From an uncultured Acidobacteriota bacterium (GTDB lineage: Bacteria; Acidobacteriota; UBA4820; DSQY01), in assembly GCA_963724125.1 (NCBI GenBank), contig CAVRTJ010000034.1, positions 18,237 through 82,236 on the forward strand: a stretch of 64,000 nt of DNA, read 5' to 3'. Of the stretch, positions 35,050 to 42,423 are shown one piece after another. Position numbers and translations under genes: made by a program. The notes beneath the pieces are model-generated. The model was not told the DNA's origin. It searched no databases and saw only the letters and a list, made by a program, of their open reading frames with translations. Numbering within the stretch: the stretch's first letter is position 1; each line of letters starts with the position of its first letter.

Positions 35050-36199
<1,150 letters not shown>

Positions 36200-36227: not shown

Positions 36228-37709
36228 TCAGCGCGAGCGGAGCGTCTCTATGCGGCGGATGAACTCTTCGAGGATGAGCCTGTAGAGCCCGTCGCCCAGG
36301 GTCCCATCTTCCACGCCCGCGTCGATGTTGGGGTTGTCGTTGACCTCTATCACGAAAGCCCCCTTGTCCGTCATCTTGACGTCCACACCGTAGAGGCCGT
36401 CTCCGATCAGGTTCGCCGACTTGAGGGCCGCCTCCAGCACCTTTGCAGGCACGTCGTCCACGGGAAGGGACTTGAACCCCCCTTCCGTGAATCGGCCCGA
36501 AGCGCTGTGCTTGACGATCTGCCAGTGGTACTTCGACATGAAGTACTGGCAGGCATAGATGGGTTGGCGCCTCAGGATCCCGATGCGCCAGTCGTATTCG
36601 GTGTACATGAACTCCTGGGCCAGGATAAGGTCCGAATCCGTGAACAGCTTCTTGCAGATGGCCTTCAGTTCGCCGAAGTTGTTGACCTTGTATATCCCTC
36701 TGGAGAACGAGCTGTCCGGGATCTTCAGGACCATCGGATAGGGAATGGACTCCTCGAGCTTCTGCAGCGCCTTCGTTCCGACTTCCTGCAGAATCACCGT
36801 CTTGGGGGTGGGGACCTTGTGGGCCGCGAGCAACTCGGCCAGGTAGACCTTGTTGGTGCACTTGACGATGGAATCGGGATCGTCGATGACGGCCATGCCC
36901 TCGTTCTCGGCCTTCTTCGCGAAACGGTAGGTGTAGTGTTCGATTTCGGTAGTCTCTCTAATGAAGAGCGCATCATACTCGGCCAGCTTCGAGTAGTCCC
37001 TCCGCTCGATCAGGTCCACGCTGATACCGAGTTTCTCCCCCGCTTTGACGAACTTCTGAAGGGCTCGCTTGTTGGACGGGGGCAGGCGCTCCGCCGGGTT
37101 GTACAGAACGGCCAGGTCGTAACGCATGTGGTTCTTCGTCCTGGGCCGGTGCCATGGTTTGCTGCGGTGGTATTCGAACGCTTCGATGAACTTCTCTTCC
37201 TGCTCCTGCGACAGTCCGTGCAGGTGCGCGGCTTTGATGGCCGAGATGTGCCAATTGCCCTGCAGGCGGAATTCGACCTTGAGGAGTGGGCACTGGAAAA
37301 GGTCGAATATCTGGCGGGCCAGCTCCGGCAACTGCCCCTGCCTGCATCGTCCGAAAAAAATGTCCATCTCGAAGGCGTTGCGTTGGTCGAGGCCCAGACT
37401 TTTTTTCAGGCCCTTTTGAACGGTCTCGTCCAGATCTTCGACGTTGAGACTGTAAATGGCTTTGCTGCTCAGATCGTTGATCGTCCTGACGGTGGGAATG
37501 ACCTTGTGGCGGCGCGCCTGCGCCAGCAGAGAACAGTAGTACCCGATTGTGAGATAGCCGTAGCTGCGGCACATGTTGACGATCTTCGCGTCCCGGAGCT
37601 TGAAATACTGTGACTGGTCCAGGTAGTCCTTTGCCAGAACCACTGTGACATCGGGATAAGAGGTCTTCCAGTCCTTCAGGTTTTCGACCAAGACGATCTG
37701 CTGAGACAT
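36228..37709 (-). CDS. RimK-like ATP-grasp ligase with ~220-aa N-terminal extension domain
   Basis: C-terminal half carries RimK-type ATP-grasp motifs (PMVLKIPDSSFSRGIYKV, LILAQEFMYTEYDWRIGIL, GLYGVDVKMTDKGAFVIEVNDNP). The N-terminal domain is of unassigned function. Start 10 nt downstream of the GNAT/C39 gene stop. Confidence 0.85.
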   Translation of the reverse strand: MSQQIVLVENLKDWKTSYPDVTVVLAKDYLDQSQYFKLRDAKIVNMCRSYGYLTIGYYCSLLAQARRHKVIPTVRTINDLSSKAIYSLNVEDLDETVQKGLKKSLGLDQRNAFEMDIFFGRCRQGQLPELARQIFDLFQCPLLKVEFRLQGNWHISAIKAAHLHGLSQEQEEKFIEAFEYHRSKPWHRPRTKNHMRYDLAVLYNPAERLPPSNKRALQKFVKAGEKLGISVDLIERRDYSKLAEYDALFIRETTEIEHYTYRFAKKAENEGMAVIDDPDSIVKCTNKVYLAELLAAHKVPTPKTVILQEVGTKALQKLEESIPYPMVLKIPDSSFSRGIYKVNNFGELKAICKKLFTDSDLILAQEFMYTEYDWRIGILRRQPIYACQYFMSKYHWQIVKHSASGRFTEGGFKSLPVDDVPAKVLEAALKSANLIGDGLYGVDVKMTDKGAFVIEVNDNPNIDAGVEDGTLGDGLYRLILEEFIRRIETLRSR

Positions 37710-37718
37710 CTTGACTCC

Positions 37719-38915
37719 TCACCACTCGGCATTGTGCGCTGCGCCGCCGCCCTTCAATCCCGGCCCTTGTTCCGCCGTACGCCACCACCGCGACCACGTT
37801 TTCGGGCCGGTCCGCCGGAAGGACGCCCTTCCGATAAACAATGCGGCCTTCAGCCCTGCTTTGCCATACCTCGCCATGCGTTCGAAGTCCTTCTTCAAGA
37901 TGGGCATGTTGATGCTGTCGGTGGCCGACTTGTGCGCCTCCAGGTCCACAAAGGAATCGTGAACGTAGATAAAGCGATCATCGAGACCGGTCACCACGAC
38001 CCAGTGAGGGGAGTTCTCGTGGTATATCCTGCGGGAGCTGATAAGTACAAGCGGGATGAGTTTCGCCTCGACGCGGTCTTGTATGTCGGACATTCCAGGC
38101 GTCCCGTAGTGCAGCGCAATGGGATGGTTCCGAATCTCTTCGAGCATGTCTTCCTGAACCAGGCGAATGACTTCCTTCTTTTCCTCGCTGCGGACGCTCC
38201 TGGTGAACAGGGCGCCTTCATCGTTGATGAAGATCTCCACGCTGAAACCGCGATGGAAGGCCGACAGCGCAAGACCGTACGGACCACAGCCGCCATGGCC
38301 AGCGGTCATGAAAATGCTGGTCGACTCGCGCCATATTCTCAGTTCGAGTTTTCTGTTCAGGTCCACCTGCGGATCGAGCGCCTTCATGGCCATCATCAGA
38401 GCCGAAGGCCCGCACGTGAAATCCAACGTCTGCATATAGAAAGGCACGCTCACGAGGTTCGGTTCGAGGTGGGGAATGAGGAACTTCTCGAATCGCAGGG
38501 CCGCCTGATGGTCCTCGTAGTAATCCTCGATTACGCCGAAACGACGGTAGCCGCTCTTGTCGTAGAGCCGGATGGCAGCCTCGTTATCGCTCCTCACCTC
38601 GAGCCTCATGCTGACGCAATCGTGCTCTCTCGCGGCCTCTTCCGAAGCGCCGAGCAGCACGGCACCGATCCCGAGGCCGCGGCTCGCCGGATCAACCGCC
38701 ACCGAGTACAGGCGTGCCAGGGACGTTCCGGTGTTGAACAGGAGCATGGCGTAGCCGCACATCCTGCCGCCTTCCAAGGCAACGAGCGTGAGTGCGTTTG
38801 CCCGGCTGAGAAGATATCGAAAATTCCGCCGCGATAAACGGTCCAGCTCGAAACAGCGCGCTTCCAAAGCGACCAGTCCTTCCAGATCATCGAGTCCGCC
38901 CCGCCGTATGTCCAT
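37719..38915 (-). CDS. GNAT N-acetyltransferase fused to a papain-like (C39-type) peptidase domain
   Basis: N-terminal GNAT pattern (LYSVAVDPASRGLGIG...MRLEVRSDNEAAIRLYDKSGYRRFG); C-terminal domain with candidate catalytic Cys in LDFTCGPSALMMA and His in SPHWVVVTG. Start placed at the internal ATG (MDIRRGG). Confidence 0.75.
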   Translation of the reverse strand: MDIRRGGLDDLEGLVALEARCFELDRLSRRNFRYLLSRANALTLVALEGGRMCGYAMLLFNTGTSLARLYSVAVDPASRGLGIGAVLLGASEEAAREHDCVSMRLEVRSDNEAAIRLYDKSGYRRFGVIEDYYEDHQAALRFEKFLIPHLEPNLVSVPFYMQTLDFTCGPSALMMAMKALDPQVDLNRKLELRIWRESTSIFMTAGHGGCGPYGLALSAFHRGFSVEIFINDEGALFTRSVRSEEKKEVIRLVQEDMLEEIRNHPIALHYGTPGMSDIQDRVEAKLIPLVLISSRRIYHENSPHWVVVTGLDDRFIYVHDSFVDLEAHKSATDSINMPILKKDFERMARYGKAGLKAALFIGRASFRRTGPKTWSRWWRTAEQGPGLKGGGAAHNAEW

Positions 38916-39138
38916 TACCGTACTCCAGCGGCGCCGCACGACGCTTGCAGCCGGCGGCGCCTTCGCGATCTATTATGAGCGCATGGAGCAAAAAATAAAG
39001 CCCCGCGAAGCGCGCGCATATCCCGTCTCGGCGCACCCGCAAGTCGGTTAGAGACGATTCGCGGCCAAGGCACTATAATGGGACCGCATCAGTTTCTGGG
39101 CCGCCGAGCGGCGTCCGCAAACGTAGATACATTCATGA

Positions 39139-39624
39139 ATGGGTGAGGGCATGGAAAAGAAAGCAAGCGTCGCCCCGGGGCACCTGGTTACGATCGAATA
39201 CACGCTCTACGACGAAGACGGAAAGACCATCGATTCCACCGAAGGCGAAGAGCCTTACACCTATATCCAGGGATACGGGCAGGTCGTACCCGGACTGGAG
39301 AAGGCGCTCGCCGGCCTGAAGCCTGGCGACCGGCGGAAGGTCACGGTGAATCCGGAAGAGGGATTCGGCCTCCACGATCCGGCAAAGGTGTTCAAGGAGA
39401 CTCGTGAGAAGCTGGATGCGGACGTACAGGTCGGCCACGTGCTCGAGGTGGAGGTGGACGAGGACCACAGTTCCGAACTGCTGGTGATTTCGGTCGACGA
39501 CAATGCCGTCATTCTCGACGGAAACCACCCCCTCGCAGGCAGAAGGCTCGTATTCGACGTCAGGGTGGTCGGTGTGAGGCCGGCCACGCTCAAAGAACTG
39601 AACAAGATCGGTAAAGCCGATTGA
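39139..39624 (+). CDS. FKBP-type peptidyl-prolyl cis-trans isomerase (SlyD-like)
   Basis: FKBP fold signature (VTIEYTLYDEDGKTIDST...YIQGYGQVVPGLEKALAGLKPGD) in a ~160-aa protein. Confidence 0.85.
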   Translation: MGEGMEKKASVAPGHLVTIEYTLYDEDGKTIDSTEGEEPYTYIQGYGQVVPGLEKALAGLKPGDRRKVTVNPEEGFGLHDPAKVFKETREKLDADVQVGHVLEVEVDEDHSSELLVISVDDNAVILDGNHPLAGRRLVFDVRVVGVRPATLKELNKIGKAD

Positions 39625-39942: not shown

Positions 39943-42423
39943 TTGGTTGGAAAGATCACAAAGAAATTCCTCGAAGTCGTTCTGAGGCACTTGCCCCACG
40001 CGGTATGCGTGCTGGCCGAGGACGGGCGGTTACGCTACGCGAACGACGCGGCGATTTCTGTGCTCGGCTGCGAGCAAAGCGACATGGCCGGCATTGGATT
40101 TTTTCGAGCGGGTGCATCCCGACGACGTGTCCAACCTGAAGGCCCGTCTTGAACGGGCGGAAGACGGGCAGTACGCGTCGTGTTCGGTCATCATCCGGGT
40201 CCTCCAAGGGCGGCGACCGGTGGACCACCATGGAGGCCTTCGTCACACATGCGGACGGCGAGGCCGGTTCTCCTCTCCTCCTGATCTACTTGAGCGATAC
40301 GTCCGGGAGGCTCGAAACGGAGGGGCGCCTCAAGAAGCTCTCGAGCGCCGTCGAGCATATAGATGAATCCGTCGTGATCACCAACAGGGATGGCGTCATC
40401 GAATACGTGAACAACGCCTTCGAGAGAACGACCGGCTACACAAAGGACGAGGTCATCGGCAAGACCCCAGCCATCCTGAAATCCGGCAAACACGACCAGG
40501 CCTTTTACAAGTGGATGTGGGACACGATCCTGTCGGGCGAATCCTTCCACGGCACCGTCATCAACAAGAGAAAAGACGGCACGCTCTATTATGAGGAAAA
40601 AACGATTTCACCCCTTATTGATGCGGATGGAGTCGTGACCCACCACGTGGCGACCGGCATGGACGTCACACACAAGAAACTCGCCGAAGAGCGTCTCAGG
40701 GCGGGAGTCGAACGCTATGCACTCTCCGTGAGAGGCGCCAACGACGGGCTGTGGGACTGGGATTTCCGGACGGGCCACATCCACCTTTCCGACCGCTGGA
40801 AAACCATGCTGGGCTTCTCGAGGGACGAAGTTGGCAGTACCATCGACGAGTGGTTCCGTCTCGTCCATCCAGACGACCTCGCCGAATTGAAAACGCTCAT
40901 GAAGGCCCACATCGAAGGTACGACCTCCCACTTCGAGCACGAACACCGGATGCGCCACAAGGACGGAGGGTACTGCTGGGTCCTGTCCCGCGGGCTGGTC
41001 GTGCGGGACGACGACGCCAAGGCTTACAGGATGGCGGGCTCACAGACGGACATTACGGACAGAAAGATGGCCGAGGAGCAGCTTCAGCACGACGCACTCC
41101 ACGACGCCCTGACGGGGCTTCCCAACCGGACCCTTTTCATGGACAGGCTCGGTCTGGCCATCGCCAGGGCCAAGCGGAGCGAGACGTGCCACTTTGCGGT
41201 CATGTTCATGGACCTCGATCGCTTCAAGATCATCAACGACAGCCTCGGCCACCTGGCCGGGGACCAGTTGCTCATCGAGCTGGCCAAGCAGGGTCAAGGG
41301 GTGTCTTCGAGCATCGGATACGGTTGCCCGCCTGGGCGGAGACGAATTCGCCATGCTTCTCGAAAACGCACAGAGCGACAAAGAGATAACGCTCTTCGCC
41401 GAGAGGGTTCAGGCCTGTATCGCCGAGCCCTTCCGGATCGGATCGCGCGACGTGTTCACGTCCGCGAGTATCGGAATTGCCCAATACGAGGACGGGTACG
41501 AGCGGCCGGAGGACATGGTCCGGGACGCCGACACCGCCATGTACCACGCCAAGAATCACGGGAGGGCCCACTATACGGTCTTCTCGCCCAGCATGCGTTC
41601 GAGGGCGCTCCAGATCCTCGACATGGAAACGGGCCTGAGGCGGGCCATAGAATCCCAGCAACTGACGGTCCATTACCAGCCCATCGTGTCCCTGAAGTCC
41701 GGCCGAATAGCCGGATTCGAGGCCCTCTCCCGCTGGCCGCACCCCGAGCGCGGCTTCATCTCGCCGGTGGAATTCATTCCCCTTGCGGAGGAAACAGGCC
41801 TCATTAACACCATCGGCCTGCTCGTTCTGCGAAAGGCCTGCCTCTATCTCAAGGCCATCCAGGGCCGGTTCCGTACCCATCCGCCGCTTACCATGAGCGT
41901 GAACCTCTCGGGCATCCAGTTCATGCGCCCGGAACTCCTGGGCCAGCTGGACCTCATGCTGAGGGAGTACGGGTTGGACCCCCGGACCCTCAAGCTGGAG
42001 ATCACCGAAAGCGTCATCATCGACCACGCCGAGTACGCGCGCGAAATGATCGACCAGATGAAGGCCCAGAATATTCGCCTAAGCATCGACGACTTCGGAA
42101 CGGGGTATTCTTCCCTCCGCAGCCTCAGGCAGTACCCCATCGACACGGTCAAGATAGATCAGTCCTTCGTCGCCACCATGTGCGAGAACGAAGAGAGCCT
42201 CGAGATCGTTCGGACCACCGTATCCATGGCCCACAAGCTCCGAATGGAGGTGATTGCGGAGGGCGTGGAAGCGAAGAAGCAGATGGACCTCCTTGCATCC
42301 ATGGACTGCGACTTCGGACAGGGCTTTTACTTCGCCCGGCCGATGGAACAGGATGCCGCCGACGCCATGCTGGCGCGCCAGAGCCATTGGTGGCAGGGGG
42401 AACCGATCGACGCTGACGCCTGA
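39943..42423 (+). CDS. Multi-PAS GGDEF-EAL cyclic-di-GMP signalling protein; at least three apparent frameshifts (~40090, ~40210, ~41295)
   Basis: PAS segments, GGDEF domain (LTGLPNRTLF...FMDLDRFKIINDSLGH...ARLGGDEFAML with GGDEF intact) and EAL domain (QPIVSL...EALSRWPHPERG...IDDFGTGYSSL...KIDQSFV). Sense passes through four frames. TTG start at 39943 with SD GGAGG. Confidence 0.75.

Follow-up and report, generated by a model that had tools for sequence, protein, structure and literature searches.

The closest described counterpart of the locus analysed here is the pairing of a RimK-like ligase carrying an RLAN domain (PF14401) with a GNAT/papain-like peptidase fusion (PF11814), proteins that NCBI names 'RimK family protein' and 'GNAT family N-acetyltransferase/peptidase C39 family protein', respectively. 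The wider RLAN-RimK/GNAT-peptidase neighbourhood was reportedly predicted in 2009 by Iyer, Abhiman, Burroughs and Aravind (Mol Biosyst). According to a 2023 survey of papain-like peptidases, DUF3335 (the family of PF11814) is often fused to GNAT (PMC10318531, citing Iyer et al. 2009). The locus lies in a 64,000-nt stretch of contig CAVRTJ010000034.1 from an uncultured Acidobacteriota bacterium (assembly GCA_963724125.1, positions 18,237 to 82,236), and this whole stretch is referred to below as the window. Its gene A and gene B belong to the same two families, with the same fusion and the same adjacency, and differ from the described pairing in nothing essential. Hence the architecture is not new, both families being in Pfam and named by NCBI, and the window adds no new one; its pair is a clean, compact and intact example. 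The two genes lie side by side in genomes of several phyla, and it is tentatively proposed that they encode a module that modifies peptide or protein ends.

Domain content of gene A and gene B

Both of the co-directional genes recognised in the preliminary description are present as open reading frames (ORFs) on the minus strand. The features of the pair and of its surroundings are as follows, in positions of the window.

37719 to 38915, minus strand: gene A, GNAT + C39-like (DUF3335) cysteine peptidase fusion, 398 aa (ORF, Pfam)
38466 to 38915, minus strand: gene A GNAT domain, residues 1-150, RimI/N-terminal-acetyltransferase type
37833 to 38447, minus strand: gene A C39-like papain-fold peptidase domain DUF3335, residues 157-361 (PF11814)
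38412 to 38414 and 38004 to 38006, minus strand: predicted catalytic codons of the gene A peptidase, Cys168 and His304, respectively
37722 to 37832, minus strand: gene A C-terminal tail, residues 362-398, non-conserved, low-confidence
37710 to 37718, minus strand: 9-nt spacer with GGAG ribosome-binding site, from the gene A stop to the gene B ATG (sequence)
36228 to 37709, minus strand: gene B, RLAN + RimK-type ATP-grasp ligase, 493 aa (ORF, Pfam, NCBIfam)
37122 to 37709, minus strand: gene B RLAN region, residues 1-196 (Pfam match 26-176; PF14401)
36228 to 37121, minus strand: gene B ATP-grasp ligase module, residues 197-493 and the stop codon
38916 to 39138, no strand: intergenic region common to gene A and the divergent FKBP gene, presumed operon promoter region
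35093 to 36199, plus strand: glyceraldehyde-3-phosphate dehydrogenase (GAPDH) gene, convergent flank
39139 to 39624, plus strand: FKBP-type peptidyl-prolyl isomerase (PPIase) gene, divergent flank

The fusion of a GNAT with a C39-type Cys/His peptidase that had been proposed for gene A was borne out by Pfam, which found both domains above their gathering scores. The first is Acetyltransf_1 (PF00583) at residues 18-123 (E 1.1e-18, 68.1 bits). Gene A narrowly misses the RimI equivalog TIGR01575 (83.5 bits, cut-off 86.4), and its GNAT lies below the cut-offs of the RimI model NF007025 (40.1 bits, cut-off 173) and of TIGR03103, 'trio_acet_GNAT' (34.4 bits, cut-off 569). Among 35 homologues of gene A, residues E106, Y123 and D131-Y132-Y133 are invariant. 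The DYY motif aligns with NYY of E. coli RimI, and E106 and Y123 match the positions of RimI E103 and Y115, which we take to be catalytic. In protein N-terminal acetyltransferases (NATs), the tyrosines equivalent to those of DYY contact the substrate peptide. The best structural neighbours of the GNAT in a fold search were all protein NATs, with RimI structures at the top. The GNAT thus falls in the NAT structural class, having a NAT-like fold, the YY pair, and a conserved Glu and Tyr where RimI has its catalytic residues.

The second domain of gene A, DUF3335 ('Peptidase_C39 like', PF11814), covers residues 157-361 (E 2.6e-80, 269.2 bits). Residues Q162, C168, H304 and D320 are invariant in the same 35 homologues. 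C168 is the Cys of FTCGPSAL and H304 the His of SPHWVVV, the two residues that had been picked out as catalytic from the sequence, and their invariance agrees with that choice. Q162, six residues before the Cys, is presumably the counterpart of the papain oxyanion Gln, and D320 is taken as the probable third member of a Cys/His/Asp triad. Homologues of the domain also match Peptidase_C39_2 (to 1.3e-11), Peptidase_C39 (PF03412; a weak match, best E 6.6e-4) and Guanylate_cyc_2. Profile searches for a solved structure of DUF3335 gave nothing beyond marginal matches to BtrH-like proteins and the C39 domain of PCAT (E ~0.02). In the fold searches, matches of the whole models were dominated by the GNAT and the ATP-grasp parts, so that RLAN and the peptidase domain were not resolved.

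The AlphaFold2 model of gene A has a mean predicted local distance difference test (pLDDT) score of 82.8, and more than 5000 homologues have the same architecture, covering only ~90% of the query. The tail at residues 362-398 (37722-37832, minus strand) is Trp/Arg/Gly-rich (…FRRTGPKTWSRWWRTAEQGPGLKGGGAAHNAEW) and unconserved in the homologues, and pLDDT is below 50 for residues 368-398. At the other end, the ATG at 38915 is preceded by GGAG, 8 nt upstream, and L14, E18, F22, D25, R29 and R30 are invariant within a conserved region of residues 14-36. The gene A protein as called publicly (P0121; 347 aa; 92,434-bp contig) lacks 51 of these residues, as expected if translation began at Met52, and such a start would remove the first part of the GNAT (window 38763-38915, minus strand). 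The longer model is preferred because of the GGAG before the ATG at 38915 and the invariant residues of the 14-36 region.

In gene B, the C-terminal RimK-type ATP-grasp of the preliminary description was found at residues ~200-462, the extent of the alignment with rimK_fam. The region before it, which had been left unassigned there, is a named Pfam family, RLAN ('RimK-like ATPgrasp N-terminal domain', PF14401; residues 26-176, E 8e-51, 172.1 bits, cut-off 25). The RLAN + ATP-grasp architecture is present in all 120 best homologues of gene B. Homologues of gene B number at least 8000 and bear the NCBI name given above. For each of the two proteins, full-length homologues run to thousands, far more than chance would give; in the best 120 homologues, identity is 56-97% and 61-100%. 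Invariant polar and aromatic residues of RLAN are D13, W14, Y29, N45, R48, Y50, Y52, R66, W153 and W186. At 50% identity, 1.84 billion representatives yield 756 clusters of the family, which is thus mid-sized, and a profile search found no solved relative.

Residues K329, R375, D443, E455 and N457 of the ATP-grasp are invariant in 39 ligase homologues, and all of these except R375 are matched by the same residue in an alignment with LysX (5k2m). As in other ATP-grasp enzymes, the Lys presumably binds ATP, the Asp, Glu and Asn presumably bind Mg, and the Arg is presumably catalytic. Gene B scores 75.3 bits against LysX (TIGR02144, cut-off 275.6), 72.5 against rimK_fam (TIGR00768, cut-off 143.4), 58.6 against MptN (cut-off 350), 43.3 against CofF (cut-off 300) and 22.3 against E. 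coli-type RimK (NF007764, cut-off 331). Judged by these hidden Markov model (HMM) scores, which lie far under every cut-off, the ligase belongs to none of RimK, LysX, MptN and CofF, and it was placed in no characterised family. Its three best structural neighbours in the fold search are LysX, ArgX and RimK, all of which act on a protein C-terminal residue; the AlphaFold2 model of gene B has a mean pLDDT of 76.4. Taken together, the ligase, GNAT and peptidase activities are all predicted to be catalytically intact.

That RLAN arose by degeneration of a duplicated ATP-grasp, of which it would retain the first two-thirds, was considered and set aside as no more than an idea, the hhalign comparison being not significant (E 0.41, probability 0.1%). 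In that comparison, RLAN and the ATP-grasp half of the same proteins are collinear over 150 columns with some motifs in register. The predicted secondary structure and motifs of RLAN (37122-37709, minus strand) likewise follow in order those of the last part of the pre-ATP-grasp domain and of the central domain, VINLCRSY...LLAEARRHKVIPSVRT lying opposite VIDDPDSIVKCTNKVYLAELL..IPTPKT, a hint that has no statistical support from hhalign. A protein representative of 5126 aa (P0501) contains 19 separate stretches that resemble RLAN residues 133-177 (E 2.1e-21), and may be a repeat protein built from an RLAN fragment or a compositional artefact.

The junction of gene A and gene B reads TGA-GGAGTCAAG-ATG. 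The spacer is 9 nt long (37710-37718) and not 10 nt as first reported, and GGAG lies inside it. Because the spacer carries this ribosome-binding site, the two genes are likely to be co-transcribed, as had been suggested. No convincing promoter was found in 38916 to 39138; a single sigma-70-like match, at chance level, lies inside the start region of gene A. Rfam models matched nowhere in the window up to an E of 1, and 10 related loci yielded tRNAs alone. The flanking genes are housekeeping genes, in accord with the preliminary description, GAPDH being convergent and the FKBP-type PPIase divergent. The pair has a GC content of 0.58-0.59 versus 0.62, the GC content at third codon positions (GC3) of the ligase is 0.82, like that of the neighbours, and a lower GC3 of 0.74 is common to gene A and the adjacent FKBP gene. 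Recent horizontal transfer was examined by composition and set aside, no clear anomaly being present; as the GC3 of the ligase matches its neighbours, there is no sign of recent acquisition. A Thermoanaerobaculia (Acidobacteriota) metagenome-assembled genome (MAG) shares ~97% identity with the window at the level of these two proteins.

Conservation and contexts of the pair

Genome loci with relatives of the ligase (63 loci, 44-97% identity) were searched for both halves of gene A. They were sampled from Acidobacteriota, Planctomycetota (Kuenenia), Verrucomicrobiota, and Alpha- and Gammaproteobacteria, and 58 of them had enough flanking sequence to be informative. A homologous GNAT lies directly beside the ligase in 54 of these 58, co-directional and upstream in 34, divergent in 17 and downstream in three. 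The same adjacent pair was seen in five more loci on long contigs, reached from one ligase and three fusion proteins and including Methylocaldum marinum and an Ectothiorhodospiraceae isolate. The pairing of GNAT and ligase is not due to chance, the synteny of the two genes in related genomes was confirmed by this comparison, and the two-gene module has probably spread horizontally.

When neighbouring ORFs of the 63 loci were clustered, only the two families proved widely conserved. This agrees with the earlier proposal of a self-contained module, and a self-contained module, as the gene neighbourhoods suggest, would have its substrate encoded elsewhere or act on a common metabolite. A precursor or carrier encoded in cis was not found: small ORFs (25-110 aa) near the module are common only within a genus, and these look like alternative-frame artefacts. 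A tRNA gene is directly downstream of the module in L064 (9526-9598, Methylocaldum marinum) and in L058 (7883-7957, a Planctomycetota genome), which could mark insertion at tRNA loci or be a coincidence.

Several other associations were examined and rejected. A link to cyclic di-GMP, as for RimA, was not upheld, as the presumed GGDEF/EAL-type cluster occurs in 8 of the 63 loci, about the chance expectation; the window, L066 and L072 each have GGDEF-EAL genes close to the module. ArgA and ArgE beside the pair in L071 are ordinary arginine genes. A defence or phage origin was likewise discarded, neither protein having a PADLOC match and PHROG matches being only generic. As a separate observation, the PAS-PAS-GGDEF-EAL gene of the window (40149-42423, plus strand) is broken into two ORFs that overlap but differ in frame, with GGDEF cut at profile position 65. 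The orthologous region in L001, 93% identical, has a single 833-aa ORF at this place, and relative to it the window has single-base indels near 40103, 40205 and 41288; the split gene is either a pseudogene or an assembly error.

The peptidase is the variable part of the module. Among the 54 linked loci, 30 have the GNAT-peptidase fusion and 24 have a GNAT alone. When the ligases were arranged by neighbour joining, loci with a GNAT alone fell into at least 4-5 separate clades; as these are nested among fusion-bearing ones, the peptidase domain looks to have been lost repeatedly. Thus, the conserved core is GNAT + ligase; the peptidase is accessory, as in many genomes the other two persist without it. 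The preliminary description had suggested a ligate-and-trim peptide tagging system or synthesis of a small amide-linked metabolite; since the peptidase is absent from 24 of 54 linked loci, it is no obligatory partner, and 'ligate and trim' is not the core logic. In four Geminicoccaceae-type loci and in P. aeruginosa, the ligase occurs with no GNAT and no peptidase beside it.

Other contexts of the ligase family were also seen. In a four-gene operon of Legionella oakridgensis and L. adelaidensis (L069 6283-10369 and L068 41-3232), the RLAN-RimK ligase, with 43% identity to gene B, comes after a stand-alone C39_2-like peptidase and before a carboxylate-amine ligase of YbdK/GCS2 type and an N-formylglutamate amidohydrolase; the operon includes no GNAT. 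Legionella thus provides a second conserved context of the same ligase family, in which the link to a peptidase recurs independently. The stand-alone ligase of P. aeruginosa (529 aa; L067, pZYPA1927, NZ_CP133752.1 31471-46931) is convergent with an Orn/Lys/Arg-decarboxylase-like gene and has ggt, a Glu/Asp ABC transporter and pagP as neighbours, with no GNAT and no peptidase; the record is labelled as a 180-kb plasmid, yet its genes look like ordinary P. aeruginosa chromosomal genes. A MATCAP/QEGLA gene, of the family of the eukaryotic tubulin tyrosine carboxypeptidase, is beside the module in L053 (3338-4681) and L055 (Spongiibacter marinus and Neomelitea salexigens). DUF2817 lies between the two genes in three gammaproteobacterial loci (L041 4622-5728, L032 and L046), and divergent M14 carboxypeptidases of ~565 aa are present in two MAGs (L070 3160-4851 and L072).

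Possible roles of the module

The reaction chemistry, the amino acid added and the substrate are here what we infer from the domain identities, intact residues and linkage described above. The module may modify peptide or protein ends, a reading that is preferred tentatively. Gene B, of the RimK/LysX branch of ATP-grasp enzymes, would, on the model of that branch, phosphorylate a free carboxyl group with ATP and add an amino acid, most likely L-glutamate, once or repeatedly, and RLAN would serve to hold either the substrate or the product as it grows. In gene A, the GNAT half would acetylate the alpha-amino end of the same substrate or product, and the C39-like half would hydrolyse either the substrate or the residues that had been added, in a maturation, trimming or recycling step. 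The substrate would not be encoded beside the module, and a peptide end or that of a widely conserved protein is favoured over a free metabolite because the ligase and the GNAT resemble protein-end modifiers and carboxypeptidase-type genes gather nearby. This preference is supported by the cleavage of peptides by C39-like domains, by the sporadic MATCAP/QEGLA, DUF2817 and M14 neighbours, which are carboxypeptidase-type, and by the link between the Legionella ligase and a C39_2 peptidase, which is independent of the GNAT module.

Several points weigh against it. No experimental study of any member of either family was found in the literature; the preliminary description had mentioned a comparative-genomics prediction with no biochemistry behind it, and the 2023 survey indeed traces the fusion to Iyer et al. 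2009 (PMC10318531). There is no conserved substrate gene near the module and no small ORF conserved beyond genus level, unlike in LysX/LysW. The RimK family includes small-molecule ligases, and the scores of MptN and CofF (58.6 and 43.3 bits) are not far below those of LysX and rimK_fam; RimK itself polymerises free glutamate (PMC10375531). The Legionella partners (the GCS2/YbdK-type ligase and N-formylglutamate amidohydrolase) and DUF2817 suggest small-molecule amide chemistry, and the peptidase is missing from 24 of the 54 linked loci.

A more specific form of the proposal is bacterial protein-end editing, which is conceivable and held with some doubt. A conserved housekeeping protein, recognised as substrate by RLAN, would receive glutamate or some other residue at its C-terminus from the ligase, and the GNAT and the peptidase would edit, the GNAT acetylating an N-terminus exposed by the fused peptidase, or the peptidase erasing the added tail. 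The module would then be a prokaryotic counterpart, perhaps a relative, of the TTL/TTLL-MATCAP cycle of tubulin and the ACTMAP-NAA80 cycle of actin.

Synthesis of a small metabolite appears possible rather than likely. The GNAT would N-acetylate a free acidic amino acid or a dipeptide, the ligase would add glutamate or another residue, and the peptidase would turn the product over, the analogues being N-acetylaspartylglutamate (NAAG) and the osmolyte N-acetylglutaminylglutamine amide (NAGGN). Ngg of the NAGGN system is the GNAT-containing 'trio' protein of TIGR03103, which matches the GNAT of gene A at 34 bits, and its other half is an ATP-grasp ligase; a peptidase is part of the NAGGN trio, and mammals have NAT8L and RIMKLA. 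The cofactor ligases MptN and CofF are among the best NCBIfam matches of gene B, no substrate protein or small ORF is conserved nearby, and the YbdK/GCS2 ligase and N-formylglutamate amidohydrolase beside the Legionella relatives, as well as the Glu/Asp ABC transporter and ggt beside the P. aeruginosa copy, point the same way. However, the GNAT is like protein N-terminal acetyltransferases and not amino-acid acetylases, the enzymes nearest to the ligase modify protein ends, and the 34 bits of TIGR03103 are far from its cut-off of 569. Moreover, Rfam revealed no riboswitch upstream in the window or the 10 related loci, and the highly conserved extra domain of 196 aa is not known to be present on the small-molecule RimK relatives. 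A second system for ribosome modification, in which the GNAT would acetylate the N-terminus of bS18 and the peptidase would trim a glutamate tail, as RimB does in Pseudomonas RimABK, is improbable. It accords with the near-cut-off RimI score (83.5 vs 86.4 bits), the RimI structures at the top of the fold matches and the RimK superfamily of the ligase, and bS6 and bS18 form a heterodimer on the ribosome. The scores against the RimK equivalog (22.3 vs 331 bits) and rimK_fam (72.5 vs 143.4 bits) speak against it, true RimK needs no RLAN, and no rpsF or rpsR gene is in the window or conserved near the module. Furthermore, RimB is a retropepsin-like protease (PMC11957791) and not of the papain fold.

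The remaining explanations depart further from the modification of a peptide or protein end. A free polymer is quite improbable; here the ligase would be a processive poly-amino-acid synthetase (making, e.g., poly-alpha-glutamate), RLAN would tether the chain, the GNAT would cap it and the peptidase would depolymerise it. Cyanophycin offers a parallel, as its synthetase and hydrolase genes (cphA/cphB) adjoin and the N-domain of the synthetase tethers the chain, and RLAN, an additional domain at the N-terminus, has many invariant Arg, Tyr and Trp residues. In vitro, RimK synthesises poly-alpha-glutamate (PMC10375531). The depolymerase would, however, be missing in 24 of 54 loci. That the papain-fold domain is a transacylase or transpeptidase serving synthesis has precedents in BtrH and CtaG, which work with ATP-grasp enzymes, and in phytochelatin synthase, and it is very improbable here. 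The best PDB profile matches of DUF3335 are BtrH-like, though marginal (E ~0.02), and CtaG, to which HHpred assigns PF11814 and BtrH, acts as a transacylase with an ATP-grasp enzyme (PMC7183216); such systems use carrier proteins, none of which is encoded here or in the related loci, and the domain is dispensable in many lineages. It is extremely unlikely that the adjacency is fortuitous and the genes are independent. The ligases found without a GNAT in the four Geminicoccaceae-type loci and P. aeruginosa would fit independence, whereas adjacency in 54 of 58 loci across phyla, kept despite changes of order and orientation, and the 9-nt spacer with its ribosome-binding site in the window argue against it.

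Both families have thousands of sequenced members, including proteins of the cultured Methylocaldum marinum, Azospirillum brasilense, Marinobacterium and Ferrovibrio, and related ligases are present in Legionella and P. aeruginosa. Were the target a protein, the module would represent a new and widespread bacterial post-translational modification, with the same enzyme classes as on the ends of eukaryotic tubulin and actin. Were it a metabolite, the module would make a new N-acetyl peptide that might serve as an osmolyte, a store or a signal.

Comparison with known systems

The module differs from RimK and RimABK in that its ligase scores below the RimK cut-offs and has the extra RLAN, its peptidase has the papain fold and is not a retropepsin-like protease, and a GNAT is fused to it. 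It has no RimA-type partner, and the nearby GGDEF-EAL gene is not conserved beside the module. In Pseudomonas RimABK, the C-terminus of bS6 is glutamylated and trimmed by RimB, a ligate-and-trim control by RimK and RimB described in PMC4741518 and PMC11957791. LysX and ArgX act with the carrier LysW, whereas gene B lies far below the LysX cut-off of 275.6 bits and has neither a LysW-like small ORF nor a lysine/arginine pathway context.

The GNAT of gene A shares its fold, the Glu and Tyr, and the YY pair with RimI and the NATs (Ard1, Naa10, Naa30, Naa50 and Naa60), and is here fused to a peptidase and linked to a ligase, unlike rimI in its usual setting. The C39 domains of bacteriocin ABC transporters (PF03412) and Peptidase_C39_2 resemble the other half of gene A in the papain fold and in the Gln/Cys/His/Asp residues, with weak to moderate HMM similarity. 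No gene for a transporter or a double-glycine leader peptide was found in the window or the related loci, and DUF3335 is treated as a separate family near Guanylate_cyc_2 (PMC10318531).

A GNAT and an ATP-grasp enzyme make an N-acetyl dipeptide in NAGGN synthesis (Ngg, AsnO and an M42 peptidase) and, without the peptidase, in the mammalian NAT8L + RIMKLA pair. The module is set apart from these by the TIGR03103 score (34 bits vs 569), the lack of an asparagine-synthase or M42 peptidase neighbour, a different domain order and the presence of RLAN, which they do not have.

The eukaryotic TTL/TTLL-MATCAP/CCP enzymes of tubulin and the ACTMAP-NAA80 enzymes of actin are of the same classes as those of the module and act together on protein ends. 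On tubulin, amino acids that an ATP-grasp ligase has put on the C-terminus are taken off again by a carboxypeptidase, and on actin, a cysteine protease exposes the N-terminus, which is then acetylated by a dedicated NAT (PMC13557074). Homologues of MATCAP adjoin the bacterial module in L053 and L055.

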